Shown here: in pieces, positions 1 to 42,128 of the stretch
Numbering within the stretch: position 1 is the first letter of the stretch
Layout of the letters: each line of letters starts with the position of its first letter
Virus record (IMG/VR): IMGVR_UViG_2744054914_000003
Reading direction: 5' to 3' (one strand)
Length of the DNA: 42,128 nt
Source of the DNA: a virus
Lineage: Duplodnaviria > Heunggongvirae > Uroviricota > Caudoviricetes
The notes under the pieces: generated by a model
Databases searched by the model: none
Seen by the model: only the letters and a program-made list of their open reading frames with translations
What the model was told of the DNA's origin: nothing
Program-made: the position numbers and the translations under genes

Positions 1-270
<270 letters not shown>

Positions 271-1873: not shown

Positions 1874-2070
1874 TACCGGCTGCGACACTTTTGAATAAAA
1901 GCGTCGACATTGCGGCGCTCATAACGAACTACTTTTGCACTGAAACGAATTGGTGCCAGGATAGCCCGATGACGATGCTTAATATTCCACTCACATAGCG
2001 TTTTCTGTGTAATACCTAACTTTTGGCATACTTCATCCGGGGTGAGTAAATCGTCGGGTTTCTCGCTCAT
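1870..2070 (-). CDS. AlpA/excisionase-like small DNA-binding protein
   Basis: 66-aa ORF with helix-turn-helix-like segment (LLTPDEVCQKLGITQKTLCEW), typical of AlpA/Xis-family proteins beside integrases. Confidence 0.6.
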   Translation of the reverse strand: MSEKPDDLLTPDEVCQKLGITQKTLCEWNIKHRHRAILAPIRFSAKVVRYERRNVDAFIQKCRSRY

Positions 2071-3464: not shown

Positions 3465-3531
3465 GGTATTGTATCTCCATGAATGAACTTATGTAGTAAT
3501 AGCTTAATTATTTATTTCGAAAGGAACAGTT

Positions 3532-4410
3532 ATGACCTCAGCTTATACAGATGTCCAGCAAGAAGAAAATATTACTGATAAATTAGTTGTTAAATATGAT
3601 GGTCCCGCACTAGCAGATCATAAAATAGATTTGGATGTTTTAACTGAGTCATTGAATGGACTAAACAACTTGCTTAAAGAAGTTAATTTGGTTGTCAATG
3701 GCACTAGTGAGTGTATTAATGTTGAGGTTGAGCCTTTTAAGGAAGGCTCATTTGAGTATTTGATTGATGTTATTCAAAATCCACTTGACCATTTGAATAT
3801 ATTAAGCATTATTGGGCTTGGAGGTACAACTGCACTCGCAGCAGGAAATACTCTCATTGACTTAATTCGTCAGATCAATGGTAGGCAAATAAAACGGTTG
3901 ACTTTAACAGCGGAAGGAGACTGTAAAATAGTTATGGATGATGGTGAGGAAATTATAGCCCCGTCATATTTCCGGCCTTTACTTGCCTCACCAAGCATAC
4001 GCAAATCCTTATCGAAGTTAATTCATAATCCTTTGCAAAAGGAAGGATACGAATCGCTTAAAATTTCAACTCAACAGGGGGTTGAGCTGATTAAGGTGCA
4101 CGAAGATAATATTGAACCGTTCAGATATAGGCGCGTTCCTGTAGTGCAGTCCTTGTCTGAAAGGGTGATTGAAGAGGCTCTAATCACATTTTTGACTATT
4201 CATAAGGATAAAAACACAGGCTGGCGAGTCAACTATGGCGATGACACAATCAGCGTGTCTATAGAAGATACTGAGTTCTTACAACGTGTTAGTACGGGAA
4301 GAGAACCTGGTGTTTTTAGTGATGCTTACTGCGTTGATTTGCTCGTCCGTGAGAACTTGAATTCGCTGGACAAAACGTACATAGTTGTTAAAGTACACGG
4401 TATCTTATAG
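3532..4410 (+). CDS. Hypothetical soluble protein, gene 1 of AT-rich three-gene moron
   Basis: 292-aa ORF, ATG preceded by AAGGAACA; about 30-35% GC against >50% in flanking phage genes; no hydrophobic helix or catalytic motif recognised by eye. Confidence 0.6.
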   Translation: MTSAYTDVQQEENITDKLVVKYDGPALADHKIDLDVLTESLNGLNNLLKEVNLVVNGTSECINVEVEPFKEGSFEYLIDVIQNPLDHLNILSIIGLGGTTALAAGNTLIDLIRQINGRQIKRLTLTAEGDCKIVMDDGEEIIAPSYFRPLLASPSIRKSLSKLIHNPLQKEGYESLKISTQQGVELIKVHEDNIEPFRYRRVPVVQSLSERVIEEALITFLTIHKDKNTGWRVNYGDDTISVSIEDTEFLQRVSTGREPGVFSDAYCVDLLVRENLNSLDKTYIVVKVHGIL

Positions 4411-4433
4411 TAGATTCACATGGGGAGGGGGCT

Positions 4434-4682
4434 ATGATTGCTTTTGCTTTTTGGCTGGCTTTTTTTAGCCTGCTTCCCGTACTATATTGGGTTCTTAAGA
4501 TGGGGTTTGACCGGTTACGCTTTGCGCTTATGCCTAAACATCATCTTGTTCTTGAATGTGTTGACTCAGAAGGAGTTGTCCGTCGCGATGTCGTTGATGT
4601 CTCTTCTGATGATGAATTTTACAAAATTGCAATGAATGCCATTCGTGCTGGAAGATCAGTCAAAGGAGGGACGTTTGAGTAG
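4434..4682 (+). CDS. Small membrane protein, gene 2 of AT-rich moron
   Basis: 82-aa ORF, ATG preceded by GGGGAGGGGG; N-terminal hydrophobic helix (IAFAFWLAFFSLLPVLYWVL) then charged soluble tail; stop TAG at 4680-4682 overlaps next gene's start. Confidence 0.5.
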   Translation: MIAFAFWLAFFSLLPVLYWVLKMGFDRLRFALMPKHHLVLECVDSEGVVRRDVVDVSSDDEFYKIAMNAIRAGRSVKGGTFE

Positions 4683-5205
4683 CGCTTCTAAACCTGATAG
4701 CTACGAAAAAGTCCCTCTGATTTCTAATGTTGCTGCTGGTGGCATCACTGGTTTTTTAACATTACTGGTGTCCTCGTGGGACGGTCGTTTTCCGTATATT
4801 GGTTCTGATTTAAATACAATAAAGCCATTTCTTTTATTAATGCTTCCCAGTTGCGCTATGTTTCTGGCGCATTGGATAAAGTCGATTGGGTTTAAATGGT
4901 CCTTAGGTAGCGTTAATCGACAGTTATTAAGCATTAATAAGAAGAAAGAAAAAGAACTTCGCCGTGATATTGAAAAGTACAAAAATGTTATTTCTAATGA
5001 AAAGATAGAGGACTTTAAAAGTCAACTTGAACAAGTATTACAAGATCGTCATGATATTATTTCTAATAATTACGCACAGAAACTAAGAGAAAGAAATTAT
5101 ACGCAAGAAAAATATCATGAGCATAAACAAACCGCTGCAAATGATAATATTGAGCTGCAAAGCATACTGGAGAATCAGAAGTTCAATCAAAAAGGCATTG
5201 ACTAA
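4675..5205 (+). CDS. Membrane protein with two hydrophobic helices and K/E-rich coiled-coil C-terminus, gene 3 of AT-rich moron
   Basis: In-frame TTG at 4675 lies 5 nt after strong AAGGAGGG and overlaps gene 2 stop by 8 nt; alternative ATG at 4636 lacks a ribosome-binding site. Hydrophobic segments (VAAGGITGFLTLLVSSW; FLLLMLPSCAMFLAHWI). Confidence 0.5.
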   Translation: MSSASKPDSYEKVPLISNVAAGGITGFLTLLVSSWDGRFPYIGSDLNTIKPFLLLMLPSCAMFLAHWIKSIGFKWSLGSVNRQLLSINKKKEKELRRDIEKYKNVISNEKIEDFKSQLEQVLQDRHDIISNNYAQKLRERNYTQEKYHEHKQTAANDNIELQSILENQKFNQKGID

Positions 5206-5209
5206 ATTT

Positions 5210-5479
5210 TTATAATATCCTCTCTAGGTTCTTGCTATCCAGCACCACTACGGTAAAGCCCAGTTTTCGCAGACGTTCATGTTCGCGCAATTGGTCAGGC
5301 CGTGGTGGCTTGCCGGGAGATTTACATTCAACGAAAACGATACGACCACCTGGTAGCAGGACAATGCGATCCGGTACCGAGCGGTGACCGGGAGATACAA
5401 ACTTAAAGGCCACTCCGCCAGCTTTTTTCACTTCAGCGACGAGGTGCTTTTCGATAAGGCTTTCACGTTCATAGGCCAT
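5210..5479 (-). CDS. VRR-NUC domain nuclease
   Basis: PD-(D/E)xK-like motif (DRIVLL ... VFVECKSPG); longest ORF extends to 5506 but start at MAYERESL is more plausible. Confidence 0.7.
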   Translation of the reverse strand: MAYERESLIEKHLVAEVKKAGGVAFKFVSPGHRSVPDRIVLLPGGRIVFVECKSPGKPPRPDQLREHERLRKLGFTVVVLDSKNLERIL

Positions 5480-5768
5480 CTGAATCCCACTCTTCAAAAA
5501 GCACATTCAATTCCAGTTTCTCTGCCAACGCGTTTTCTGCACGTGCGCCAGCAGAGTACTCCCACTCTTTGAGCATATAAATCGTATCGGCACAGCGAAG
5601 CATTGCGAGGCAGATGTCCATATACTGAGCCTGTGTCAAACCATTGGGTAAAGTTGCGGGGTTAAGCACAACATATCCCTTGTCCGTTAGCCTCTTTGCT
5701 GCGGAATGAAAAGCCGGGCGGTTAAATTGCTCGTAACCGCTCATCGGCCCGGCAACGTAAACGATCAT
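5469..5768 (-). CDS. DUF4406-like (nucleoside 2-deoxyribosyltransferase-like) phage protein
   Basis: 99-aa ORF with N-terminal VYVAGPMSG motif recalled for this family; ATG at 5768. Confidence 0.55.
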   Translation of the reverse strand: MIVYVAGPMSGYEQFNRPAFHSAAKRLTDKGYVVLNPATLPNGLTQAQYMDICLAMLRCADTIYMLKEWEYSAGARAENALAEKLELNVLFEEWDSDGL

Positions 5769-5985: not shown

Positions 5986-8049
5986 TTAATCCTTACGGTA
6001 GTGGTACGCCTCAAAACCGCCAGCGTTCAGTGGGATATCTGGCGCCCATTCGGGGTTAGTGGAGAGAAGCGCGGAAAGCGCTTTATCGTTGAAATCTTCT
6101 GTGTCAGGTGATTCGGTGATCACCTCGTCGTGTACCGTCAGCACAATGCTGTAACCGGCATCTTCGATAAGCGGCATGTTTCCGGCCAGAACGTCGCGGG
6201 CGGCCGCCTGGGTGACGTTCTCCACCAGCTTTCCGCCGTAGGTTTTGAGTCGTTGCCATTTACGCGAATAAGAGTTAACACCCATGTAGGTGATATTCCC
6301 TTGTTCGATAACCGGAGACGGGTAGCATACAGCGCGTCCGGATGGTAGCTGTATGCGCAGCCACGCGCCATCGCGGCGGATTTTAAGATAACCGCAATAC
6401 AATGTTTTTTGCGGTGTGGCGATTGCTGTGCGGACGGTGCACTCCAGTTCGTACCAGAAATCACAGGTCGCGGGATGCGCCCGGCGCCAGAGACGTTTAA
6501 GTGAGTCGCAGGCGATAAATACCCGTTCAGAAAGCCCGTAGGTCGATTTACGTTTAACCGATTCGTCGTACCAGCTTTTCGCCTCGCGGATAACATCGCG
6601 GGGAATGTTTGGCAGTGCGGCGTTCGCCAGCCCGTCGAGATCGAGACCGTAAACCAGAGCAAAAGTGATGAAAGCCGATACACCTCCTCCATAACCCAGA
6701 CCGAGTTCCATGACTTTACCGATCTGACGCATGTGTTTATCAACATCATCTGGTGCAATATCGAAAGCTTTTGCATACGCCAGTTTATATAAGTCCGGAC
6801 CCGTTCCGGCGTCGTACTCTCTGAATGCATTCAGTTTCCATTCTTCTCCCGCCAGCCATGCCAGCATACGGCCTTCAATGTTCGACAAGTCACTTACCAC
6901 CAGCTTTTTGCCTGTTGGCGCGATAATGCAGCCACGTAACGCTGAACTGGTTAGTTCCATGATATTGTCAAACAGCAGGTCTGCACATCCGGCTTTCAGT
7001 GCTTCGATGCCTTCGTCTATTTGTTCCTGTTTTAGTGAAGGGCGGGGAAGGTTCTGGGGCTGGAATAGCCGTCCGGCCCAACGACCGGTACGTGACGCCC
7101 CGCAGAACTGTAGCGTACCGCGTAAGCGCCCGTCGTGGCTTACGCCTTTCATCAGTGCCTTGTATTTACTGGTGCTGGTAGTACTGGCCTGCAGGCGGAT
7201 AGCCAGCAGTTCTTTCACGGCAGATGGTAAATCGGGGTCGGCAATACGACGTTCCAGAGTACTGCGTTGCATGTCTGGTAGCTCCACACCGTAGGATTCA
7301 ACAATGTGCTTAATCAACGCGTCTCGTTGTGTGGCTGCCTGCACTTCGCCATCAGTCATTTCCTGTGTACGCTTTGCCAGGCGCTTTTGTTCCTGGTCTA
7401 CCGCGTCGATCGCAGCGCGTGCGAGTTCCACGTCCATGCAGACGCCCCGGTCATTGATCTGCTGATCACGATGCCAGAGCGCCAGTTCTGTCCCCTGATA
7501 ATTCCACTTCGGCAGACGTTTATAGACTTCGCGCATTGCCTCGATATCCAGTCCGGCGTAAGCAACAAAGCGCCGCCATTCTTCCGGGTGGGTTTTGCTG
7601 GTGGCCCGGCGCAGTTTGCTGTTTTTCGGGCGTGGCTTACAGAACAGCTGGATCAGCGCTTTACCTTCTTTGTCCTTCGCTTTGTCTTGCGGGACGCCTA
7701 GTACTTCGCAGAGTTCCCCCAGAGACCCCGGGAGACCGTGCGCCAGCGCCTGCACCATCGTGTCGCGCCAACGTTCGACTGGCGGTGCCAGTCGCGGCAT
7801 TGCATAACGCAGGACGGTGCGGTCGAAGTGAGAGTTATGAAAATAAAGCAGGGTTTCAGGGGCTGCGATTGCTTCGTATAAGCCGTGTGGAATACCACCA
7901 CCGGCAGTGATATCCCATACGTTTACTGGCCCGTCGTTGATAGCCCATGCGAACAGCATCACTTCAACGCCTTCGGCATACGCATGGGTACCGTTCGTAA
8001 TAGGGATTTCGCAATAGGTTTCCAGGTCGCCCCATAGTATATTGGACAT
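5986..8049 (-). CDS. Family-A DNA polymerase (3'-5' exonuclease plus polymerase domains)
   Basis: 687-aa ORF; exonuclease motif DLETY near N-terminus, polymerase motif A-like ([13 protein letters not shown]) and motif C (VHDEV). Confidence 0.85.
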
Positions 8050-8095
8050 GTGTTTACCTTGGTTTTTATTCTATTAACTGATTAAAAGATTAATT

Positions 8096-8725
8096 ATGCA
8101 TATGATCCAATACTTGATTGACCATACAGAGCATCTGGAGAAAATAGCTGGATATATTTTTTCATGTTTGATTGTTATGGGAGTCTGGATAAGAAAGATC
8201 ATTTTTAATTATAAGTATAAAGAGCCTAAATATGTCAAGAAGTTAATTTTATATTTAGTTAAGTATGAACGTTATCTGGATAAGGAGGATAAGAGTGCCA
8301 TAGAAAAAAGAATAAATGATAAAATTATTCGTGATGCGCTGAAATTGCAATCTTCTTATAACCGAAGTGATGTTATTTACATTTGCAATAGATTAGAAAA
8401 AAGACAGTATATAAATCAGGTGATTAAGCTTCAGAATTATATAGAGAAAGATAACGGAGTGTTTTTCATCAATGTTAATTTTTCAGGTTTTTTATTTATT
8501 ATTAGTCGTCTGTTTTCCTTTCTGTGTTTTGTGCTGTTTATCCTTTTTTCTATTATCTGCATTATTTCCATAGGGCAAAATGAAGGCCTTTTAAATTATC
8601 TTGTGTATATGGTTATGACAATAGTTTTAGAGACTGTTGGTTTTTGGATGTATGATACTTTCCCGTCTAAGAAGAAGATCTGTGAACTAAATAAAGAATT
8701 GAGGAAGATTAAGATTCCTGAGTGA
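8096..8725 (+). CDS. Hypothetical membrane protein (AT-rich moron, opposite strand to the replication operon)
   Basis: 209-aa ORF in strongly AT-rich DNA between two minus-strand replication genes; hydrophobic segments at N-terminus and C-terminal third (FLFIISRLFSFLCFVLFILFSIICIISIG; LVYMVMTIVLETVGFWMY). Confidence 0.5.
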   Translation: MHMIQYLIDHTEHLEKIAGYIFSCLIVMGVWIRKIIFNYKYKEPKYVKKLILYLVKYERYLDKEDKSAIEKRINDKIIRDALKLQSSYNRSDVIYICNRLEKRQYINQVIKLQNYIEKDNGVFFINVNFSGFLFIISRLFSFLCFVLFILFSIICIISIGQNEGLLNYLVYMVMTIVLETVGFWMYDTFPSKKKICELNKELRKIKIPE

Positions 8726-8777: not shown

Positions 8778-9326
8778 TTAAATCAGTGCTTCAGCATCAG
8801 CACCTTCGCTGATATCGTCGAAATCGTCAGCGCTTGCCACTCCGCCGCCAGCGAATGCATCGCCGTCTCGCAGGAACTGGACTCCGCCGAGTGAGGCATT
8901 AATGCGTTTACCGAAATTATTGTCCTGTGCCCAGATATCGATAACGGCGTTTACATAGCACCCTGCATAGGGACGTCCATCAGCCTGAATAAGTGGCGAA
9001 CGATCGCGATCAAGAACAGCTGGGCGCGCTTTGTTAGCAGCATTCAGGAAGAAATTGCCGGGGAAGCCTTCATACTCTGCTTTTTCATCACCATCATGCA
9101 GGCACAGATTGAGTTTTTTCTCCAGTTGGTTATAAATGGGCTCCCACTTCTCTCCCCATTTTTCCTTCGCTACCTGCTTCATAGCTTTACGGATTTCTTC
9201 CAGTTGTGGGTGTTTGGGTGACATTAAAAATACTGCGGAGAAACGTGGATCGCCTTCGCCGTTTACAGTTTTAGCTTCAAACAGAGACGGGAAGGCCAGA
9301 CGAACATTGTTCAGCTTCAGTTTCAT
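8778..9326 (-). CDS. DUF2815-like phage protein (SSB-like, as recalled)
   Basis: 182-aa ORF with acidic C-terminal tail (DDFDDISEGADAEALI); sits between DUF2800-like and polymerase genes as in the recalled module. Confidence 0.6.
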   Translation of the reverse strand: MKLKLNNVRLAFPSLFEAKTVNGEGDPRFSAVFLMSPKHPQLEEIRKAMKQVAKEKWGEKWEPIYNQLEKKLNLCLHDGDEKAEYEGFPGNFFLNAANKARPAVLDRDRSPLIQADGRPYAGCYVNAVIDIWAQDNNFGKRINASLGGVQFLRDGDAFAGGGVASADDFDDISEGADAEALI

Positions 9327-9341
9327 GGGTATTTCCTTAAA

Positions 9342-10643
9342 TCAGATGAGGTCTGCGGTTAGCGTATCGTCGGATACGTCGTCGAAATCATTTACAGGGT
9401 TGATATTGAGTGCGGGGCGTGGGTCTGACTCGGGAACGATGGTGGGTTTACCATCAGCTCGTGTTATCAGTGCCTCGACTTTTGACCAACGGCGCGGACT
9501 GGCCTTTTTGATAAGTTTTTCGGCTTTTGTGGGGCTAATAAGTTTAAAGTCGAATACTTCTTCAGTTTTGTACCTGAACTGGTCCTTCAGAAGTGCGCGA
9601 GCTGCCTCTTCATCACTCCAGGCCCGGTTACCTTGTTTTCCTGTTACCAGTTTAAACCCCGGTACCGGATGTCCGGCATTGAGTTCATTGTGAACCCGGT
9701 CTCGTACTGCCTTTAGCCAGGATTCAATAAAGTCGGCCTGGCTATAGATCTCCGCAAGCTGCTCAATGGTTAACAGAGGTACACGTGCGCTGGCATTGGA
9801 GATTATTTCGCTGACAGGCTTTGTCAGATCTTCAAAATCGCTGGCCGCTGTTTGTAAATGCTGCATTTTCTGGGCAGTGCAAATAGCTTTTGCTTTACAG
9901 AAGCGGCACTGTTTTTCTCCAGGTATGAAGTTTTCCAGCGGTAGTGTCTCAATGCCTTCGCATTCAGCAATATTGAGAACAAGGATCGCACTGGTTGCGG
10001 CCTCCAGTGCCCGTTCACCGAAAGACTGAAGTTCCTGTACGGTTAACGACCATTCTGAAACGTGGTTGAGCCTTGGCTGGTGAATAAATAATCTTACAGT
10101 CTCAAAGTCATACAGCATGCTGAATTGTTCGAGCGCACCCAGAGCATACAGTTGTAGTTGCTCATTTTGTTCTGCATCAATGCGGACGCCTTTGCCATAT
10201 TTCAGGTCGTGGATTTGTAATTCGCTACCAGCAATGATTATGCCGTCGGCAGTTCCGAAAGATTCTTCCACACCCGTTATATGTGAGAAATCAACACGTT
10301 GTTCAACCAATAGTTCATTATTCTGTGCAAGAGTCCAGACCGTATCAACATACCGGCCAACGGCTTCGACCATTTCATCATCCACCTGTGGGCCAGATGT
10401 ATCATCAGGATTTTCGCGAAGGGGGTATGAGCCGAGAAACATAGAAACATTGCATCCGGCGTAGTGTTCCGGGTAGCTTTGCCTGTTTCGTAGAACTTTT
10501 TCAGCAAGCGCGTGCGCTGCAGTGCCCTCGATTGCAAAAGTTGTTTCTTTATCCGGTTGTGTGGCCTCCAGCGCCAGACTTCCTGGGCAGCGCATCCATC
10601 GATGCGCTGATGATGGAGAAAGTTGTGCATGAACGTCTGGCAT
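9342..10643 (-). CDS. DUF2800-like PD-(D/E)xK nuclease (Cas4-like)
   Basis: 433-aa ORF with N-terminal [15 protein letters not shown] motif and C-terminal cysteine cluster ([10 protein letters not shown]). Confidence 0.65.
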
Positions 10644-10645
10644 GA

Positions 10646-11548
10646 TTAACCCTCCAGTGCTTTTTCAGCCAGGGTGATTACTTCAGCGAGATTTTCATCC
10701 GTTACTTCACCAAGTTTCCTGGCTCCCTGTTTTTCCAGAATTGCAATAGCTTCTGCCCGGTAACCCCCTTTTGCTAACTGGAGGATCAACCCTTCAGCTT
10801 GTTTGCGTAGTGCCGCGAAATCAATTGTATGGTCATCTTTGGCGTCATGATTCTGGCTGGAATTTGCTGCGTCTCTGCGTGCAAATTCTTCTTGCAGCTG
10901 AAGGTACTCAACACGGTTGATCTCGATATGGCCTTTTTTCAGCATCTCGTTCAACTTGCGTAAGGTGTGGAGTTCACTGGCTGCTGTGCCGGATACATTT
11001 TTGACGTAAAACGGCCCCGTGCGTTCTCCATCTTTGTTACTGGCCTTTTTCGGCTTAACTTCATCACGCCCATCCGCAGGTGCATCAAGTAGCTGCTCGG
11101 CAAAAACACGTCGCTCGCCGATGGTTGGCAGGTCGTCCCAGAACTTAAGGATGTTACGGGACAGGTCCAGGAGAGCAGGTTTAAGCAGCGCCCTGGCTCG
11201 TTTGACGCCCTGCAATGCGCTGTCGAGAGCATCAATCTGAACTACTCGTTTATCGCCTTCAGCATCACGGTAGGCAACAGCACGTTGCAGCATGTCTTCT
11301 GTGATAGGGGTGGCTACCGGGTAGAAACCAGCCAGTGCGATAACGTCGCTGAACTCCAGATCATCCAGTGTCATTGCCGCTGACATATTTTCAGTTTCAG
11401 TTGCTGTATCCCGACATTCCTGCACTCGTGAAATCGTGTCAGGATGCATAACAATGCCTGATGCCATTGTGCGGATAAGACGTTCAAGCAGCGCATTATG
11501 TTGTGCCAGAAGTTGATTATTAAGTTCGAGACTGGTTTCTAAACTCAT
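10646..11548 (-). CDS. Hypothetical early phage protein
   Basis: 300-aa ORF, same strand and contiguous with the replication module; no motif recognised. Confidence 0.45.
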
Positions 11549-11727
11549 ACTGTGGTCCTCGCTACAAGGAGAATGAAAGTGATGATCAGACCGAGCGCAG
11601 TGGCAACGGCCAGACCGGTCATCAAATCGAAGTTTTTACGGCGATAACGGAGAACATCGCGCCCCGTCAGTCGATGGGGGTATTCAGGTTTCATCGGTTG
11701 TATTCCTTTTTTCATATCGGGGAGCAC
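11545..11727 (-). CDS. Small membrane protein (first gene of leftward early operon)
   Basis: 60-aa ORF with C-terminal hydrophobic helix (LAVATALGLIITFILLVA). Confidence 0.35.
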   Translation of the reverse strand: MLPDMKKGIQPMKPEYPHRLTGRDVLRYRRKNFDLMTGLAVATALGLIITFILLVARTTV

Positions 11728-11756
11728 GCTGTTGCGAGTGCGCTTTCAGACATAAA

Positions 11757-11790
11757 AAAGCCCGTCACTTGAGGCGGGCAAAGGCTACAC
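11757..11790 (-). terminator. Putative rho-independent terminator (minus strand)
   Basis: On the minus strand: GCCCG...CGGGC stem followed by TTTTTTAT. Confidence 0.4.
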
Positions 11791-11850
11791 ACAGCAATTA
11801 CTTGGATGTCAGCGAATGCCTGCTTTTAACCACGTCAGACGAGATGGCTC

Positions 11851-11901
11851 TCTCTGTACCCCTACAGCGAGAATTCGGCTAATATCTCTTTACCCCTATA
11901 G
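11851..11901. promoter_or_regulatory. Two 17-bp direct repeats (TCTCTKTACCCCTAYAG), putative operator or promoter element
   Basis: Copies at 11851-11867 and 11885-11901, two mismatches, immediately upstream of the 11919 start codon. Confidence 0.45.
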
Positions 11902-13881: not shown

Positions 13882-16068
13882 ATGTCCGATAGCAAACCAT
13901 GGGGAGCTACGCCTGATGAGTGGTTTCATTTCGACCTGGTATTGGGGCGGACTGCTCATCTTCTCCCAGTTGTATGTAACCCCAGTGCGACCATATCCCC
14001 TGATAGTAAATTGAAAGCGTTGGGTAAGACGCCGAGTCGCTATAACCGGGACCGCCAGGTCACAGGTATTGCTCAATGGACCGGGCATGTTGTTACTGAG
14101 CATGATTTTGCCCGCTGGTCGAATGAACCGGATTATGGCATCTGCGTGCGTACAGGCCATGGCTGGCTGGCGCTGGACTGCGATAGCGAAGATGAAGACA
14201 TTCAGGCAGATATTCGCAAAACACTTGTGCAACTTCTGGGTGAGTCGCCGCCGCGACGCTGGCGAGCAAACAGTAATAAGTGTCTGTATCTGCTGGCCGT
14301 TGATGGTGATTTCCGTAAGCGTATCCATCGCCTGGCGGGGGATATGGGCATTATCGAGTTGCTGGCGAACGGGCAGCAGTTCGTTGCCTGTGGTACGCAC
14401 AGCAGCGGCGCGCGTATTGAATGGGACGGTGGTTTGCCGGATGAACCTCCGGCTATTACAGGTGAGCAGCTTGAAACGCTGTGGCAGCGCCTGGCTGAAC
14501 AACTCCCTGTGTCGGTAACCACCGAAGCGGGCAACACGAAGATGCGCGACCGTTCAGCATTCACGCCCGGCGCGACGGATGATACAGCTGAATATCTTGA
14601 TGCCAATGGCTGGACGCTGCTGGATGGCGCAAACGGTGAACGATATATCCGCTGTCCGTTTGAAGACGGCCACAGTAGCGGAGGCGATCCAACAAGCACA
14701 GTTTATTTTCCTGCGGGAACCGCAGGCTTTGAGCAGGGGCATTTTAAATGCCTGCATGCCAGTTGCGCGCATCGTGATGACGGAGATTTCCTGAATGCCA
14801 TCGGGATCCGCAACGACGATTTCGAAGATCTGACCAGCATCGAAGTGGCGGAACCTTTACCGCTGCCTGCTTTCGAGCGTGATAAATGGGGGCGTATCGA
14901 GGCAACCATCAGCAATGCAGCCAAAGCAGTAGTACGCTCTGATTTTGTGGACATCGATATTCGCTTTGACCAGTTCCGCGACGAAATCATGTTTGCCCCG
15001 GCAGGATCCGGACAATGGCGGGCATTCACCGATGCGGATTATGCGCGCCTGCGCATCACGATGGAAAAGCGGGGATTTAAACCTGTTGGCCGTGAACTTA
15101 TTCGCGATGTGGTGTTACTTGCAGCCGATGAACAACCATTCGATTCAGCGATCACCTGGCTGAACGGACTGGAGTGGGATGGCGTGCCGCGCATCGAATG
15201 TTTCTACCATACGCACTTCGGTACCGCCGACACGCCTTATACCCGTGCGGTGTCTATGTACATGTGGACCGCGTTGGCGGGGCGAGTACTGGAGCCAGGC
15301 ATCAAAGCGGATATGGTGCCGATCCTCGTTGGTCCGCAGGGCTGCGGTAAGTCTTCCGGAGTGGAGGCACTGAGCCCTGATCCTGCGTTTTTTACTGAAA
15401 TCTCTTTTGCCGAAAAAGACGATGATCTCGCTCGAAAAATGCGTGGTCGGCTGGTGGCAGAGATTGGTGAACTGCGCGGACTTAATACCAAAGAGCTGGA
15501 GTCAATCAAAGCGTTTGTGACGCGTACTCACGAAAACTGGATCCCGAAATACCGGGAGTTCGCCACCCAGTTTCCTCGTCGCCTGGTGTTCGTTGGTACC
15601 ACTAATGAGGACGAATTCCTTGCGGACAAGACTGGTAACCGTCGCTGGCTCCCCGTGGAAGTGTCGAAAGTCGACGTGAAAGCGATAAAAAGAGATCTCC
15701 TTTTACTTTGGGCTGAGGCTCGTGAGGTGTTTCAGCGTCTGGGGGGTATCCAGTTCCGTGAGGCTGAACAACTGGCAGCGAGTGTCCATGAACAGTACAC
15801 CATCAAGGATGCTTGGCTTGAAACGGTAGAGAAATGGCTCGACACGCCCGACCTGATGACTAATGAACTTCCGCGAAATTGCGAATTTTTACGCGCAAGT
15901 GATGTTTTGCGTGATGCGATTGGGCTAAATCCTGACCGCATCGGAAAACGCGAAGAAATGCGAATTAGTAATGTTTTGCAAAATTGCGGGTATAAGCGTG
16001 CCCAAAGGCGAATTGGGGGGAAAAAATGCAAGGTTTGGGAACCGCTGGAACCACGCGGAACCACCTAG
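13882..16068 (+). CDS. Replication initiator: Prim-Pol-type primase fused to P-loop NTPase (VirE/D5-like helicase)
   Basis: 728-aa ORF; Walker A (LVGPQGCGKSS) in C-terminal half; N-terminal half with acidic Prim-Pol-like motifs; iterons overlap its 3' end. Confidence 0.75.
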   Translation: MSDSKPWGATPDEWFHFDLVLGRTAHLLPVVCNPSATISPDSKLKALGKTPSRYNRDRQVTGIAQWTGHVVTEHDFARWSNEPDYGICVRTGHGWLALDCDSEDEDIQADIRKTLVQLLGESPPRRWRANSNKCLYLLAVDGDFRKRIHRLAGDMGIIELLANGQQFVACGTHSSGARIEWDGGLPDEPPAITGEQLETLWQRLAEQLPVSVTTEAGNTKMRDRSAFTPGATDDTAEYLDANGWTLLDGANGERYIRCPFEDGHSSGGDPTSTVYFPAGTAGFEQGHFKCLHASCAHRDDGDFLNAIGIRNDDFEDLTSIEVAEPLPLPAFERDKWGRIEATISNAAKAVVRSDFVDIDIRFDQFRDEIMFAPAGSGQWRAFTDADYARLRITMEKRGFKPVGRELIRDVVLLAADEQPFDSAITWLNGLEWDGVPRIECFYHTHFGTADTPYTRAVSMYMWTALAGRVLEPGIKADMVPILVGPQGCGKSSGVEALSPDPAFFTEISFAEKDDDLARKMRGRLVAEIGELRGLNTKELESIKAFVTRTHENWIPKYREFATQFPRRLVFVGTTNEDEFLADKTGNRRWLPVEVSKVDVKAIKRDLLLLWAEAREVFQRLGGIQFREAEQLAASVHEQYTIKDAWLETVEKWLDTPDLMTNELPRNCEFLRASDVLRDAIGLNPDRIGKREEMRISNVLQNCGYKRAQRRIGGKKCKVWEPLEPRGTT

Positions 16069-16791: not shown

Positions 16792-17070
16792 GTTGAATTT
16801 CTGACCTCAACGAAGAGCTCCAAATCATTGGGGCTTTTTTAATGCTCTATTCTCAGTAAAAGTTAATAAAACAGGGTTTTCGTCGCGAAAAAACGCTATG
16901 CAGTTTTTGCCCTTTTTTATGCACCTCTTATTCACTCGAATTTCGTCATTCTGGACCACTTAAGTTGATTAAATAGGCCTTTCATCGCAAATCTATTGCG
17001 AGCGGTGATCGTGTGGTTCCTATAACATACATTATGTTAAATAACTTCCTTTTTTAACAAATTTAACAAG

Positions 17071-17093
17071 GTTCGCTATGGCGAACTTTTTTT
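17071..17093 (+). terminator. Rho-independent terminator, candidate tR' (late-operon terminator subject to Q antitermination)
   Basis: GTTCGC-TATG-GCGAAC perfect 6-bp stem followed by TTTTTTT, about 280 bp after Q and about 100 bp before the holin. Confidence 0.55.
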
Positions 17094-34361: not shown

Positions 34362-34601
34362 ATGAGGAAAATCGTTAATCGTTACTTAGCCGCTGCCGGT
34401 AGTGTTATGGACATTATGCCGACTACAGATTACTGGCAATATGCTGCTTCTGGATCTGATTGTCGGGCAATAAGAAGTGATGTTAAAGTCATTGCAAGTG
34501 ACATGAACAGAGTTATCAGGTATGAGTTCAAAACCCCGCAAGCAGGCGGCCGTTCTCAAAAAGCATCAGGAAAACAAAGCGTCGCAAAAAGCCGTTCCTG
34601 A
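34362..34601 (+). CDS. Small hypothetical protein (uncertain; overlaps the next ORF in another frame)
   Basis: ATG at 34362 preceded by GGGAGGGG; longest ORF from 34299; AT-rich promoter-like region upstream at 34200-34300. Confidence 0.3.
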   Translation: MRKIVNRYLAAAGSVMDIMPTTDYWQYAASGSDCRAIRSDVKVIASDMNRVIRYEFKTPQAGGRSQKASGKQSVAKSRS

Positions 34602-35094
34602 TTCGGATGGTATCGACGAAGATATTGATTCCTCGGAATATGATGAGTCTCAGGAAGTAGTGGAAAAGCTGTCTGCAGTTGCCAACCTTGATCCTGAGCT
34701 AAAATCGAAGTTAACACCTGAACTTCTTGAGAGAGTTTCTAAGAACCCGAAGGTTATTGCCATGTTTCAGCAGGAGTCTTTTCAGGGACCACTCCCACCT
34801 CCTGCTATGCTCTTACAATATAATCAAATATTACCCGGCGGCGCTGAGAGAATTTTCAGGCTAACCGAAAAAGAGCAAGAGCATAGGCATAAGACGCAAA
34901 GTGATGCATTACTTGGTGCGGTTTCACGCGACAAACGTGGGCAATGGATGGGATTTTGCATTGCAATGGTAGTGCTTATAATGGCTGCGTTTTTTGCTAA
35001 TCGCGGTAACACTTGGTTCGCAGGTACTCTTGCTACTTTAGATCTCGTAGGATTAACTACAGTGTTTGTTTATGGTAGGAAGAAACCTAAATAA
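34522..35094 (+). CDS. Membrane protein with K-rich N-terminus and two C-terminal hydrophobic helices (tail-module moron)
   Basis: 190-aa ORF; hydrophobic segments (WMGFCIAMVVLIMAAFF; AGTLATLDLVGLTTVFVY); lower GC than flanking tail genes. Confidence 0.5.
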   Translation: MSSKPRKQAAVLKKHQENKASQKAVPDSDGIDEDIDSSEYDESQEVVEKLSAVANLDPELKSKLTPELLERVSKNPKVIAMFQQESFQGPLPPPAMLLQYNQILPGGAERIFRLTEKEQEHRHKTQSDALLGAVSRDKRGQWMGFCIAMVVLIMAAFFANRGNTWFAGTLATLDLVGLTTVFVYGRKKPK

Positions 35095-38133: not shown

Positions 38134-38804
38134 TGGCAAAAAATGACTTTAAAGCATTCGCAACGGGTAAAAATGCCAATGTTATGTCGCAGGAGGAATG
38201 GGAAGCGTTGCCTGCGCTTTTATCTGGATTTACAGCAGGGAAAGCCTCCAGTGCGCAAGTCAATAAGGTTATTCGGCAGGCCAGCTTTATTGCTGCAGCT
38301 CTGGCCCAGTTTGTAAGTGATAAAACGCAACGGGATGTGCTTGATAATGGTGATCTGCCCGGTTTTGTTGAATTGCTGGGATCGGGGTTTGCTGTTGAAT
38401 ACCTGAGCCGCAAGAATCCGTTTGGTGATATCAAATCGGATGGCACGGTGAAAACGGCTCTCGAAAACCTTGGTTTGGGAGAAGCGGCAAAACGAAATGT
38501 GGGAACAGGGGAAAATCAGATACCTGATATGTCATCATATGCATCAGGTTCAGGCTGGCGAAAAATGCCAGATGGTTCAATTGAACAGTGGGGACGAATT
38601 AGTTTTCCTGGTGAACACGGGCCTGTATCCGCCAATGTTTCATTCCCAATTCCATTTACACAGACACCGGGCATTGTAATTGTGTGCGATGGTGGTTTCG
38701 GGAGCGGGAATATGTGGGGGGCGACCAACTGGAGCACTACCGGCTTCATAGCTCACTGCAATTATGGTCTTGAAGGTGGTGCGTTTTTCGCTAAGGGCTG
38801 GTAA
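38133..38804 (+). CDS. Tail fibre (constant N-terminal part plus currently expressed variable C-terminal part)
   Basis: ATG at 38133 overlaps upstream stop; crossover site lies inside this ORF at 38458-38483; followed directly by a tail-fibre assembly gene. Confidence 0.7.
38458..38483. repeat. hix/gix-like inversion crossover site (left), inside tail-fibre gene
   Basis: CTCTCGAAAACCTTGGTTTGGGAGAA resembles hixL (TTCTTGAAAACCAAGGTTTTTGATAA) as recalled; core AAACC-TT-GGTTT. Confidence 0.7.
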
Positions 38805-39247
38805 TGATGAAATATCTGTACGTAAACAACCTGGCATATCCTTACGAACTTCAGTCTCTTTATGTTGAAAAAGGTGAATGGCCTGAAGAAAAAGGTGTTG
38901 ATATAGACGAAGTAATTTTCAGGGAATATTTCTATGATACACCACCAGAAGGAAAATACAGATGTGTCGGAGAGGATGGACTGCCTGCATGGGCAGATAT
39001 TCCTCCACCAACACGTGAAGAACAAATTGCATCAGCCGAAACTAAAAAGCAGCAATTGATTAACCAGGCCAACGAATACATCAACAGTAAACAATGGCCA
39101 GGTAAAGCATCAATTGGTCGTCTGAAAGGTGAGGAACTGGCGCAATATAATTTGTGGCTGGATTATCTGGACGCACTGGAACTGGTCGATACTTCCGGTG
39201 CGCCAGATATTGAATGGCCTACGCCTCCGGCAGTTCAGGCCAGATGA
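38804..39247 (+). CDS. Tail-fibre assembly protein (Tfa/U-like)
   Basis: 147-aa ORF with conserved Tfa C-terminal motif (YLDALELVDTSGAPDIEWPTPP). Confidence 0.75.
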   Translation: MMKYLYVNNLAYPYELQSLYVEKGEWPEEKGVDIDEVIFREYFYDTPPEGKYRCVGEDGLPAWADIPPPTREEQIASAETKKQQLINQANEYINSKQWPGKASIGRLKGEELAQYNLWLDYLDALELVDTSGAPDIEWPTPPAVQAR

Positions 39248-39821
39248 CGTCCGGCGCTGTGCTGGTATCTGTTGCCGTCACCGCGTCAATGTAATCCAGC
39301 ACAGCGTTAAGTCGGGTGTTTTCTGGCTGCGTCAGCTTCCGCCCAGCCTGTAATTTCAGTTGAATCAGACTGATGGAAGCCATTGCAGCATCAATCAGCG
39401 ACTGGCGCTGTGCTTCTGCCGCTTCTACTGCGGCGCTATGCTGTGCCTCGGTATCGGTCACCCATTTCTCACCATCCCATTTATCGTATGGCGTTAATGG
39501 GGCGATAGTGGTTGTATTTTCGGGGTAATCACCCGGAGTTGTGATTTCTTTGGCGTCTCCCGTTTCGGTGTTATAGACGATTTCTCCGCGATGGTCTGGC
39601 ACATATTCCCATGAGTTTAAATCCGCAGAGCGGCAGATGGCATAACCAGCTTTATATGTTCCTGGTGCATCTAAACAGGAACATGCCGGAATACCGACAC
39701 CAACAGCAAGATATTCAGTTGATGTGGAAATATATTCTCGTGTTTCACCATTATAATTATAGACAGTAATATCCCCCGCCTTCGTGGCAATAAACTCGCT
39801 ATTTAATACGGCATTATCCAT
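39219..39821 (-). CDS. Alternative tail-fibre assembly protein (Tfa'/U'-like), inverted orientation
   Basis: 200-aa ORF with matching Tfa C-terminal motif (LDYIDAVTATDTSTAPDVIWPELP); convergent with and overlapping the plus-strand Tfa. Confidence 0.7.
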   Translation of the reverse strand: MDNAVLNSEFIATKAGDITVYNYNGETREYISTSTEYLAVGVGIPACSCLDAPGTYKAGYAICRSADLNSWEYVPDHRGEIVYNTETGDAKEITTPGDYPENTTTIAPLTPYDKWDGEKWVTDTEAQHSAAVEAAEAQRQSLIDAAMASISLIQLKLQAGRKLTQPENTRLNAVLDYIDAVTATDTSTAPDVIWPELPEA

Positions 39822-40328
39822 TATGCAGCCCTCACGATGTAATTAAATGAAAGGTTACGAGGGCGCATTGATATCCATGCCCCGGTAAAATTATCCTCCG
39901 CTGTCCTTTGAGTACCCGTTATGGAGTTATCTGCTGATGCAGGAACATAATCGCTATTATTTCCTGCTTTAGGATTAGCTGGGTTTCCAACAGTTATAAC
40001 AGAATCAGCAGTAGCAAAAGCGATACCTACTTTGACATTAGTATTCAGATCGTAACCGTAATAATCCTGCAAAGCTGTACGAATAAATGTTGCAGCCTGA
40101 CCACTTAGCAATGAACGCCCCGTATCAATCCCTCTAGAATCATCCCAGCCACGAATAAACTCACCACGTAAATCAGGCAATTTATTTGTCGGGTAAGCCT
40201 TTGCCAGTTCCGGGTATTCTTCAGCAGAAAAAGCTGCTCCGTTGCATTTCAGCCAGCCTGTTGGAGGTGTCTCTGAAGGCCACGGAACAGGTGCACCAAC
40301 AGGTAATGCTGAACCTTCTCCCAAACCA
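39821..40328 (-). CDS. Alternative tail-fibre variable C-terminal segment (Sv'), promoterless until inversion
   Basis: Minus-strand ORF (39821-40369) with tail-collar-like motifs (PVGAPVPWPSETPPTGWLKCNGAAFS...LPDLRGEFIRGWDD); joins the constant part in frame at the crossover site. Confidence 0.65.
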
Positions 40329-40341
40329 ACGTTTAAGAAAA
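40315..40341. repeat. hix/gix-like inversion crossover site (right)
   Basis: Reverse complement reads TTTCTTAAACGTTGGTTTGGGAGAAG; core AAACC-AA-CGTTT, inverted relative to the left site. Confidence 0.7.
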
Positions 40342-40396
40342 TGCAGAGATTACGGCTAACTGGCATCATCCCCGGTTTTTATTCAGGGGATCCATC

Positions 40397-40657
40397 ATGC
40401 TTATTGGCTATGTCCGCGTATCAACAAATGACCAGAATACAGAATTGCAGCGTAACGCGCTGGAGTGCGCAGGATGTGAACTGATTTTTGAAGATAAAAT
40501 CAGCGGAACAAAATCAGCCAGACCGGGATTGAAAAAACTGCTCAGAACGCTATCAGAAGGAGATACGCTGGTTGTCTGGAAGCTGGACAGACTGGGGCGC
40601 AGTGTGCGGCATCTTGTCGTGCTGGTGGAGGAGTTGCGCGAACAAGGTGTTAATTTT
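40397..40657 (+). pseudogene. DNA invertase (Gin/Pin/Hin-family serine recombinase), truncated after about residue 87
   Basis: N-terminal 87 aa (MLIGYVRVSTNDQNT...LDRLGRS...REQGVNF) closely resemble Pin/Gin as recalled; similarity ends at about 40658 where AT-rich DNA begins; ORF runs on unrelated to 40792; C-terminal HTH domain absent. Confidence 0.7.
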
Positions 40658-40678
40658 AGTAGTTATGTTATTACAGGT

Positions 40679-40694
40679 GGGGGATTTCTCCCCC
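40679..40694. other. GC hairpin at the junction between invertase remnant and AT-rich cargo
   Basis: GGGGGA-TTTC-TCCCCC, 6-bp perfect stem, about 20 bp beyond the breakpoint. Confidence 0.35.
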
Positions 40695-40715
40695 TTATGC
40701 AGATTTTCTCGTTAA

Positions 40716-41561
40716 CTATTGGCGAAGTGGCCATATTTTTCTGTTTTTTAAAAAACTATCTTCAACTATATAACTGCAACAATGTTCACTAAGGCCATAA
40801 AAACTAATTATTCCATATTTATGAGAAGCTATATCAGACAGTTCTGCTAATACTGTGGCAAGCCAACGAGCGATGCTAAGAGAATAGAATCTTCCCCACT
40901 TTTGAACAATGGTATTTTGTCCAGTACGGATGGAGGCTGATATAAGGTCTTGCATAATGTTGGTACTTTCATTCATATACATGACCGTTGTATACGGTGA
41001 AAGAGTGGCATTGATAAACCTAGCATTTTCTTCAACACGTCTTTGTTCAACTGTATAATAATAATGTTTTTCAAGGATACTCTCGGCTACTTCTCCCCAC
41101 CATTTATTAATAGGTTCATTATTGGTTAAATTGGGGCTGCTTAATGAGGAGAAATTTGCGTAACGTCCCCGTCGGGCATCAGCAAAGGAATCTAAACATT
41201 CAAGTATTTTGTAGGTAATTTTATGTGTAGGACGTGAATATCTCAGAGATAGTTGCATTTTTTTAGAAATACTATCAACCTCGTTGGTTAATTCAATGAG
41301 CTTGTGTCCAAATTTTCTTACAATATTCTCGTCAGGCATTTTTCCTTTGTGTTCAATGGCATAGTGTGCAACAAGTATTAGTTTAGCAAGTCTCTCAAAA
41401 CCTACAGAAAGCCCAAAAAATGCTGTGTAATATTCACCTATTTTGTCTGCATAATTGGCTTTACCTATGGCTGTTGCCCCAGAACCAATGAGCTGTGTTA
41501 CTAAAGATGCTTCTCGGCCCAGAGCGTGCCATGCTGGAATATCCCAGGGATTTTTATTCAC
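40716..41561 (-). CDS. Hypothetical protein encoded in AT-rich cargo beyond the invertase
   Basis: 281-aa ORF with GTG start (forward CAC at 41559-41561); AT-rich; no motif recognised; does not match my recollection of McrA. Confidence 0.5.
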   Translation of the reverse strand: MNKNPWDIPAWHALGREASLVTQLIGSGATAIGKANYADKIGEYYTAFFGLSVGFERLAKLILVAHYAIEHKGKMPDENIVRKFGHKLIELTNEVDSISKKMQLSLRYSRPTHKITYKILECLDSFADARRGRYANFSSLSSPNLTNNEPINKWWGEVAESILEKHYYYTVEQRRVEENARFINATLSPYTTVMYMNESTNIMQDLISASIRTGQNTIVQKWGRFYSLSIARWLATVLAELSDIASHKYGIISFYGLSEHCCSYIVEDSFLKNRKIWPLRQ

Positions 41562-41689
41562 TTTATTATTTTCCTTTGCTCATAAATTTAAATTGTTTGA
41601 GTATCTCATAAAATATAAGGAGGTGGTTAAGGTTGTTGATCGCATATAATAGCTATTGAAAGTCAAGAACTCGGTTTTATGTTCTACCA

Positions 41690-41728
41690 CTAATTAATAT
41701 ATTGTGAGTCTGACAATATATTAATTAG
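41690..41728. promoter_or_regulatory. Perfect 16-bp inverted repeat with 7-bp spacer (putative operator)
   Basis: CTAATTAATATATTGT-GAGTCTG-ACAATATATTAATTAG, about 130 bp upstream of the 281-aa gene start. Confidence 0.55.
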
Positions 41729-41861
41729 TATGATCAAACCAGCCATCAACTGATTCCTTGTATCTTTCAGAGTCTCCAGAACAAAAGCCTTAACGAATTC
41801 CTTATTTGTGAGTGCATTACAAAAAGCCATTGTTGCAGGGAACGAGTATAAAACTCGCCAG

Positions 41862-42128
41862 CTACTGGAGCAGGCTACCTGATTGTCGATCGATTCCTGC
41901 GTCCATATAGTCGATGGTCTTCTGGAGCTCTTCGATTAGGGCAACAGCTTTTGCTCGAGAAATACATATTAGTTGATCCGGAAATTCTTGTAAGGGCCAG
42001 TTTGGTATACAGGCCATGTTATCAGTGAAGGATGCAGACAAGTAAACTTCATTGGTAACCAGAGAATAGCTTACCTCAAAATTGGTGAGTTCCGGCAAAC
42101 TGCTAACGTTTGACTCTTTTCTGCGCAT
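41862..42128 (-). CDS. Hypothetical small protein
   Basis: 88-aa ORF, ATG at window end (forward CAT at 42126-42128), AT-rich; upstream region lies outside the window. Confidence 0.4.
   Translation of the reverse strand: MRRKESNVSSLPELTNFEVSYSLVTNEVYLSASFTDNMACIPNWPLQEFPDQLICISRAKAVALIEELQKTIDYMDAGIDRQSGSLLQ

Follow-up and report, generated by a model that had tools for sequence, protein, structure and literature searches.

What does the AT-rich DNA at the right-hand end of an Escherichia coli prophage encode, and could it be a defence gene? The question is raised by a stretch of 42,128 nucleotides (IMG/VR record IMGVR_UViG_2744054914_000003; the whole of this stretch is referred to below as the window), in which a minus-strand gene for a protein of 281 amino acids (aa) lies next to a truncated tail-fibre invertase. 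The initial annotation of this DNA had described two minus-strand open reading frames (ORFs) at this end, and both were seen, the 281-aa ORF with its GTG start at 40716-41561 and an 88-aa ORF at 41862-42128; for the former, RefSeq annotates an identical 281-aa coding sequence (WP_001039127.1). The same annotation had offered the pair as a candidate defence or addiction module. The defence half of that proposal gained support from homologues lying in or next to defence systems, whereas a two-gene addiction module is contradicted by the distribution of the genes. The results described below suggest that the 281-aa gene is a candidate for a single-gene, uncatalogued anti-phage defence family.

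Genomic neighbours of the 281-aa family

The strongest functional evidence for the 281-aa family is its genomic company. Taking one genome per species gave 57 loci, 55 of which had a callable ORF and were used for neighbour counts. Pfam matches among the 105 immediate neighbours were most often to HsdR domains (7) and Methylase_S (6), with TIR and Abi_C next at two each, and PADLOC identified seven specificity subunits and seven type I restriction subunits in the same set. When the loci were searched by BLAST with Hsd proteins, genes of type I restriction-modification (R-M) systems were found within 8 kb in 11 of the 55, and all 11 had the same arrangement, with the homologue (X) on the same strand in the order hsdM-hsdS-X-hsdR and gaps that were often -4 to +12 bp. 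As a rough, uncomputed estimate, a random gene has an Hsd neighbour about 0.1% of the time. The hsd-embedded copies fell into at least six sub-clades with 42-81% mutual identity and were interleaved with solitary copies, and so do not derive from one inherited island. At a metagenomic alphaproteobacterial locus the gene was also between hsdS and hsdR, its start overlapping the end of hsdS, and was followed downstream by HsdR and then by a protein matching the PADLOC candidate PDC-S18. In Enterobacter the gene was located after hsdM-hsdS-hsdR and before an integrase, and in Pectobacterium directly after the Gabija genes gajA/gajB. Two prophage locations were also found: in Serratia a P2-like prophage slot between gene A and the portal gene, with a PvuII R-M system beside it in one of two loci, and in Morganella a P2-like prophage in which the gene is inserted between those for tail-fibre assembly and the sheath. 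Because the homologues repeatedly sit in or beside known defence systems, a defence role is plausible, and on this comparison of loci we consider it probable that the 281-aa protein is a defence gene of some kind.

Both kinds of location have precedents. The gpA-portal slot of P2 is a defence hotspot that holds old and tin (Rousset et al. 2022, PMC9122126). The region in the window is like the P2 old/tin and Z/fun hotspots in presenting variable cargo of one or a few genes between conserved phage genes, and members of the 281-aa family are themselves present in gpA-portal (Serratia) and tail-fibre-assembly/sheath (Morganella) slots; the prophage in the window, however, is not P2-like. For the embedded copies, the precedents are PrrC, a latent RNase embedded in the EcoprrI hsd operon and released when a phage counteracts restriction (PMC3874165), which is almost always embedded (Payne et al. 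2024, bioRxiv 10.1101/2024.01.29.577857), and DarTG2, embedded in the hsd operon of enteropathogenic E. coli (PMC12255303). PrrC resembles the 281-aa family in its same-strand position between hsdS and hsdR, seen here in 11 of 55 species, but has an N-terminal ABC-type NTPase domain, whereas the 281-aa family has neither a nucleotide-binding domain nor a Pfam match. Guilt by embedding has led to 145 candidates that are now in PADLOC, and in the same work mutation of the motif histidine of HEC-08, a HEPN protein, abolished defence (Payne et al. 2024, bioRxiv 10.1101/2024.01.29.577857). The inference drawn here is of the same kind as for those candidates, where a defence role is predicted for uncharacterised genes that lie inside type I R-M, BREX or DISARM operons. 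The difference is that the 281-aa family matches no PADLOC v2.0.0 model, PDC candidates included (no match at E ≤ 1 for the 281-aa or the 88-aa protein), and is therefore not among the candidates catalogued in that release.

A widespread family of nearly constant length

A word-indexed search returned 486 homologues of 279-283 aa with 56-74% identity, from Gamma- and Alphaproteobacteria, and none of them contained a Pfam domain. An exhaustive profile search extended the family to 944 cluster representatives (50% identity), of which 686 scored below E = 1e-10, with the length remaining close to 280 aa throughout. The 57 loci include Mycobacterium (52% identity), Nitrospinota, Fibrobacteraceae, Binatia and Longimicrobiaceae, as well as an actinomycete, Pirellulales and a metagenome-assembled genome of Bacillota, and identity among the E. 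coli, alphaproteobacterial and Mycobacterium copies was 52-74%. When 50 members with identities as low as 26% were aligned, nine positions proved invariant (E17, E56, R57, K60, H86, F126, R133, Y134 and W154) and five more were nearly so (N136, E198, R232, D268 and K275).

The initial annotation had recognised no motif in either protein, and this was borne out for both with Pfam, NCBIfam and PADLOC. For the 281-aa protein, PHROGs were likewise negative, and the sole NCBIfam hit was a chance HdrC match at 13 bits. When the 50 diverse members were compared with Pfam, no family matched more than one member at E ≤ 1, each such match being at chance level and non-HEPN. Searches of the PDB by sequence, with the single sequence and with a profile, yielded chance matches only. 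The Foldseek and PADLOC comparisons that had been proposed as checks were also carried out; Foldseek of the 281-aa model against the PDB gave no significant match, and PADLOC gave no hit for either protein. Longer members (314-357 aa) contained no additional Pfam domain that could be a fusion partner. An internal duplication, as in a tandem HEPN protein, was considered and rejected, as hhalign of the N-terminal against the C-terminal half was negative. We found no paper on the RefSeq accessions of the family, nor any description of it in the literature on hsd-embedded genes.

A distant homologue of 273 aa (hhalign probability 99.9%, 23% identity; plus strand, 3603-4424 of locus L020) is carried by 136 plasmids, which are for the most part conjugative plasmids of Klebsiella, Escherichia and Salmonella. 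In one of the IncX1/X3 type (locus L087), the gene has DinQ-like type I toxin genes on one side and hns-hha-topB on the other, with the relaxase gene distant and a SMEK-domain gene nearby.

A helical model and a HEPN-like nuclease proposal

AlphaFold, run on an alignment of 31 sequences, gave an all-helical model of the 281-aa protein (predicted local distance difference test 82.5; predicted template modelling score 0.83), in which the most conserved loop, 131-148 (RRGRYANF...), was modelled with low confidence. Judging from this model, the N-terminal four-helix bundle would resemble those of HEPN ribonucleases. The invariant His86 is placed in a loop between a short helix (78-83), which ends with Arg82, and helix 88-101, and the conserved acidic residue expected on helix 2 of a HEPN protein is present as Glu56, accompanied by Arg57, on the predicted helix 41-70. 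No P-loop domain was detected by Pfam, NCBIfam or PADLOC or in the all-helical model, and a Pfam scan of the 281-aa protein and the 50 members produced no match to a curated HEPN sequence family. Hallmarks of the HEPN superfamily are an up-down bundle of four helices, metal-independent RNase activity and the canonical motif Rx4-6H (Anantharaman et al. 2013); the [R/K]x3H around His86 reads as a near miss of this motif.

That the 281-aa protein is a defence effector with a HEPN-like nuclease mechanism is the reading we prefer, tentatively and with slightly less than an even chance of being correct, on the strength of the model and the genomic context. The product would be expressed from the lysogen as a stand-alone anti-phage effector, in which His86 and Glu56-Arg57, perhaps with the Arg133-Tyr134-x-Asn136 loop, would form an RNA-cleaving site. 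This site would be silent until infection, whereupon host or phage RNA (tRNA, rRNA or mRNA) would be cut and the infection aborted, as with HepS, AbiV or the HEPN domain of PrrC. Copies embedded between hsdS and hsdR may act as a back-up defence behind the type I restriction enzyme, and the prophage copy would work without a type I R-M partner. HepS, a single-protein HEPN abortive-infection anticodon nuclease of the Gifsy-1 prophage (PMC13043305), differs from the 281-aa protein in several respects: there is no detectable sequence relation, it has 218 aa against 281 here, where there is an extra conserved C-terminal helical half, and it has the canonical Rx4-6H where the cargo protein has [R/K]x3H. 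A more specific version, which we think quite unlikely in its entirety, would make the 281-aa protein a compact, ATPase-less counterpart of PrrC and the first recognised member of a large, phylum-spanning defence family absent from the current catalogues. Its non-canonical HEPN-like site ([R/K]x3H, Glu-Arg and RYxN) would be that of a latent RNase guarding type I enzymes and fired by phage anti-restriction proteins, and it would also work alone on prophages and plasmids.

Several observations weigh against this proposal. The Rx4-6H spacing is not present in the 281-aa protein, the spacing being x3 (R-K-F-G-H), with x4 confined to members that have an insertion, and the basic residue at position 82 is Lys in 24 of the 50 members. 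Roughly 80% of the loci are solitary, this window included (it has no hsd genes near the 281-aa gene), some of them among housekeeping genes, which is also a point of difference from PrrC. The 273-aa homologue belongs to the backbone of many IncX plasmids and is not in an obvious defence island, and the sequence conservation of the 281-aa family is unusually high for defence proteins. Finally, association with defence loci is not equal to function.

A defence protein that is not a HEPN-type nuclease would draw on the same defence-context evidence. The bundle would then be a scaffold and the protein a sensor, an adaptor or another enzyme, one that possibly uses, for instance, the invariant RYxN loop and Trp154, perhaps by way of a conserved host target. 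The canonical HEPN motif is absent and neither Foldseek nor the sequence profiles show a HEPN relation, and the conserved residues extend across the whole 281 aa, including E198, R232, D268 and K275 in the C-terminal part, all of which favours such a protein; the low confidence with which loop 131-148 is modelled is as expected for a binding segment. A HEPN-like bundle and the placement of Glu56 and His86 would speak for the nuclease, and we regard the non-HEPN variant as unlikely, though the likeliest of the rivals.

If the 281-aa protein is an anti-phage effector, a widespread single-gene system would be added to the bacterial immune repertoire, one that ranges from enterobacteria to Mycobacterium in about 940 clusters (50% identity) and that current detection tools overlook. 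HEPN-like chemistry would then be possible with a motif outside the accepted Rx4-6H definition, and the placement between hsdS and hsdR would offer a second, simpler system besides PrrC in which to study suicide nucleases as a back-up for restriction enzymes. Candidates of this kind are frequent in the field, and nothing in this one is without mechanistic precedent.

Readings other than defence

The most specific association of the family, with type I R-M operons, could also be that of an R-M accessory protein or modulator, or of a counter-defence factor of mobile elements, acting for example in restriction alleviation, in the control of HsdR assembly or in the protection of incoming DNA. Carriage of the gene by phages and plasmids, with a homologue in the conjugative IncX backbone, would suit this role, and the unusually high conservation fits contact with conserved Hsd machinery. 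However, at about 80% of the loci no type I R-M gene lies within 8 kb, there are unrelated neighbours as well (Gabija, PvuII, TIR and Abi_C), and the P2 slots typically hold defence genes. Moreover, the IncX copy is away from the relaxase/oriT region, which is the usual place of anti-restriction genes, and the genes embedded in Hsd operons that have been studied, PrrC and DarTG2, are defence effectors. These points make a modulator or counter-defence factor improbable.

A shade less probable again is a gene with no part in phage conflict: a passenger, selfish or neutral, or a gene of lysogenic conversion, with a role in, for example, stress physiology or regulation. Some copies do stand alone among housekeeping genes, or among oxidoreductase genes on an Enterobacter plasmid, and the family has no functional annotation anywhere. 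The enrichment of R-M and other defence genes among the neighbours and the occupation of three different prophage cargo hotspots argue against this, as does a patchy spread across phyla resembling horizontal gene transfer, combined with strong purifying selection, which is typical of conflict genes. Thus, a defence effector, tentatively of the HEPN-like kind, remains the reading we prefer.

A foreign segment that truncated the invertase

To the left of the cargo region is the invertible tail-fibre segment (38465-40334), which is bounded by 20-nt inverted repeats (38465-38484 and 40315-40334) and contains an alternative tail-fibre tip and assembly genes. It is followed on the plus strand by the remnant of a pin-type serine invertase, comprising the first ~88 codons (40397-40659) as defined by Pfam Resolvase, by alignment and by a RefSeq pseudogene ("recombinase, missing C-terminus"). 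The ORF itself spans 40397-40792, its frame entering foreign DNA after the remnant and reaching a stop at 40792. The Pfam Resolvase match is limited to residues 3-89 of this ORF (positions 2-98 of a profile of 145), so that a complete catalytic domain is not present, and the Pfam scan found no C-terminal HTH_7.

The sister prophages of E. coli O103:H2 12009 and IAI1 served as the reference for the breakpoints. The O103:H2 12009 prophage is inserted at the same place in the chromosome, and its pinE is frameshifted but of full length. In the alignment, similarity to the O103:H2 prophage was lost within pinE at ~40657-40661 of the window and regained at ~41847, which puts the right breakpoint at ~41846, 15 bp short of the stop codon of the 88-aa gene. 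The swapped-in cargo segment given by these alignments and by a GC scan is thus 40660-41846 (1,187 bp, 36.2% GC); for comparison, all 1,187-bp windows of the remaining prophage had a minimum of 37.9% and a median of 50.4% GC. AT-rich DNA had previously been described as running from the breakpoint to the end of the window, which holds for 40660-41846 and fails for the 88-aa gene, which has 44% GC and belongs to the backbone. The breakpoints indicate that only 40660-41846 is foreign, with a single gene inside it, the one encoding the 281-aa protein. They also indicate that the recombined cassette deleted the 3' part of the invertase gene, from about codon 89 of a pinE of ~184 codons, in line with the initial view that cargo acquisition had truncated the invertase, and that an earlier content of the slot was lost in the same swap, as judged from the unrelated 215-aa gene that the sister prophages hold there. 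The price of acquiring the cargo was the phage's own tail-fibre invertase.

The invertible segment was found in opposite orientations in strains MS20658 and A4 (window 38465-40334; 1319-3555 of locus L086), the flanks of which are 100% identical over window positions 40315-42128 and carry the same truncated invertase. The flipping was therefore either carried out in trans by a host Pin/Gin-type invertase or took place just before the truncation.

A cargo slot next to the 88-aa gene

Comparison of related prophages indicates that the region is a cargo slot at the attR end, flanked on one side by the 88-aa gene and on the other by the gene for the tail-fibre invertase. The 88-aa gene (41862-42128, minus strand), which lies outside the swapped segment, is the terminal backbone gene and reads inward from the attR end toward the slot. 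Its family comprises 61 clusters, all from Escherichia, Salmonella or Citrobacter, and the gene is always the last before the prophage end, with variable cargo on its inner side. The only match of its product was to PHROG 17793, itself without an assigned function. The window ends at the start codon of the 88-aa gene with the frame still open and an in-frame ATG four codons upstream, and some public gene calls lengthen the ORF to 113-145 aa (window 42117-42128; 16830-16845 of locus L001). RefSeq annotates the gene in some genomes (WP_001253100.1) and leaves it unannotated in others, including strain A4.

Among 5,426 complete E. coli genomes, 125 had the 88-aa gene region and 44 had the 281-aa gene. 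In the ~81 others the slot holds a 215-aa orphan instead, as in IAI1 and O103:H2 12009, where this unrelated gene is at 7310-7957 on the minus strand of loci L003 and L004, accompanied in IAI1 by an acyltransferase gene. The 215-aa family has 216 clusters, its named members all being Enterobacterales, and gave no match in Pfam or PADLOC. The possibility that the 215-aa protein is a relative of the 281-aa protein was rejected (hhalign probability 0.5%). In Citrobacter the slot is empty and the 88-aa gene abuts an intact invertase (Resolvase plus HTH_7). In Salmonella enterica it contains two short ORFs, of 58 and 89 aa, plus the gene for a glycosyltransferase of 380 aa that matches Pfam GT4-conflict (6396-8096 of locus L080), and no invertase is present at this locus, which is of the same prophage lineage. 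Conserved flanks with alternative, unrelated contents in relatives are the marks of a prophage cargo ("moron") hotspot, and both are seen here. We found no literature description of a slot between a lineage-specific 88-aa gene and an invertase; it is newly defined for this prophage lineage, with at least four alternative contents. No content of the slot has been characterised, so each is a candidate for testing.

The 88-aa gene is thus a conserved flank and the 281-aa gene one of at least four alternative cargoes, so that they do not constitute a two-gene module. This disposes of the earlier description of two cargo genes, as the breakpoint at ~41846 falls between them and the 88-aa gene is conserved backbone of the lineage. 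A toxin-antitoxin or addiction pair, which their adjacency on the same strand with the small gene upstream of the large one had suggested, is hardly credible given that ~81 E. coli genomes, as well as prophages of Salmonella and Citrobacter, have the 88-aa gene but lack the 281-aa gene, that the 281-aa family at the loci examined in other taxa never has an 88-aa-like neighbour or any conserved partner, and that a recombination breakpoint and 300 bp with promoter-like sites separate the two genes.

The initial annotation had likened the position to that of mcrA in the e14 element, and the order stfE-pinE-mcrA-prophage end was confirmed in MG1655. Both elements have invertible tail-fibre genes, a pin invertase, one cargo gene and the prophage end in the same order. 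The cargo genes differ, however: that of e14 shares the strand of pinE and encodes McrA, a type IV restriction enzyme of the HNH type, whereas the one here lies on the strand opposite to the invertase gene, which it destroyed on arrival, and specifies an unrelated helical protein. The lack of resemblance to McrA noted before agrees with the absence of any known-family match.

Sequences flanking the 281-aa gene

The 281-aa gene (40716-41561, minus strand) has a AAAGGAAAA ribosome-binding site. This site and the GTG start are kept between hosts, and conservation reaches only ~45 bp upstream. A GC-rich stem-loop (GGGGGA-GAAA-TCCCCC; 40679-40694, minus strand) is located 21 nt downstream of the stop codon. 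RNAfold on the 56-nt 3' flank (40660-40715, minus strand) gave -14.6 kcal/mol for a structure consisting of the stem-loop plus a 4-bp outer stem. The stem-loop is a possible terminator candidate that lacks a T-run; a terminator scan of the region found no canonical intrinsic terminator. Homologues in other hosts have their own, different hairpin at the same downstream position. Since upstream conservation is confined to ~45 bp and the downstream hairpin is specific to the host, the mobile unit is a single gene.

The non-coding upstream part of the cargo segment (41562-41846, minus strand) measures 285 bp and has 32% GC. A promoter scan placed sigma-70-like sites at 41612-41639 and 41696-41724 on the minus strand, and the number of promoter-like sites in this region showed no excess over shuffled expectation. 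A 46-aa ORF at 41690-41830 is not conserved and matched no family in Pfam, PADLOC, NCBIfam or PHROG. A conserved upstream antitoxin or leader was considered and rejected, as only the ~45 bp containing the ribosome-binding site and the GTG are shared between hosts.

The prophage, its boundaries and other variable regions

E. coli chromosomes match the window at up to 100% identity (strains M-17 and A4; 99.9% in FDAARGOS_144), and the window represents a single, complete E. coli prophage of ~42 kb, inserted in yfhL. This prophage is temperate and of the myovirus type, with genes in the order integrase, replication module, lysis, head, contractile-tail baseplate, invertible tail-fibre segment and then the cargo region. 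The window starts exactly with chromosomal yfhL (1-261, minus strand), followed at the left end by a tyrosine integrase gene (470-1873). The attL core, an exact 38-bp direct repeat (TTCACACATATCACAATTGATGCATTTTTTAGTGATTA), is at 214-251 within the 5' end of yfhL, and extension of the sequence to the right, as the initial annotation had proposed, located the identical 38-bp copy that constitutes attR 210 bp past the window end (17039-17076 of locus L001). In complete genomes chromosomal yfhH starts ~310 bp past the same point. With attR and yfhH so close, the cargo stops within the window; the suspicion that it continued further and that the unit might be incomplete was misplaced, as the segment already ends at ~41846.

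Integration took place within the first codons of yfhL (window 214-261; 17039-17090 of locus L001), and the original 5' end (MALLITKKC...) was left beside attR. The prophage provides a substitute N-terminus and start codon, and yfhL therefore remains intact. Three GenBank "vB_EcoM" phage records contain the 281-aa gene, for example ON470588.1 (Escherichia phage vB_EcoM-611R5). These were rejected as proof of virion production: they include chromosomal yfhH, pgpC and tadA, and are therefore excised prophage regions rather than sequenced virions.

Three plus-strand genes are set singly among the minus-strand replication genes (SNF2 helicase, VRR-NUC, DNA polymerase, DUF2815 and DUF2800), at ~3497-4207, 4543-5571 and 7689-8318 (9823-10533, 10869-11897 and 14015-14644 of locus L019); two are annotated as hypothetical and one as "ATP-binding protein". 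Other prophage genes, such as those for the SNF2 helicase and an ATPase, were considered as defence systems and rejected, since their PADLOC matches reflect generic helicase-domain similarity only. Contents also vary at a second slot, immediately upstream of the tail spike gene, at window ~34522-35094 (9223-9795 of locus L001). It contains a DUF2335 gene here, a DUF4282 gene in O111:H11 (6801-7040 of locus L002) and two other small hypothetical genes in O103:H2 (633-1361 of locus L004).

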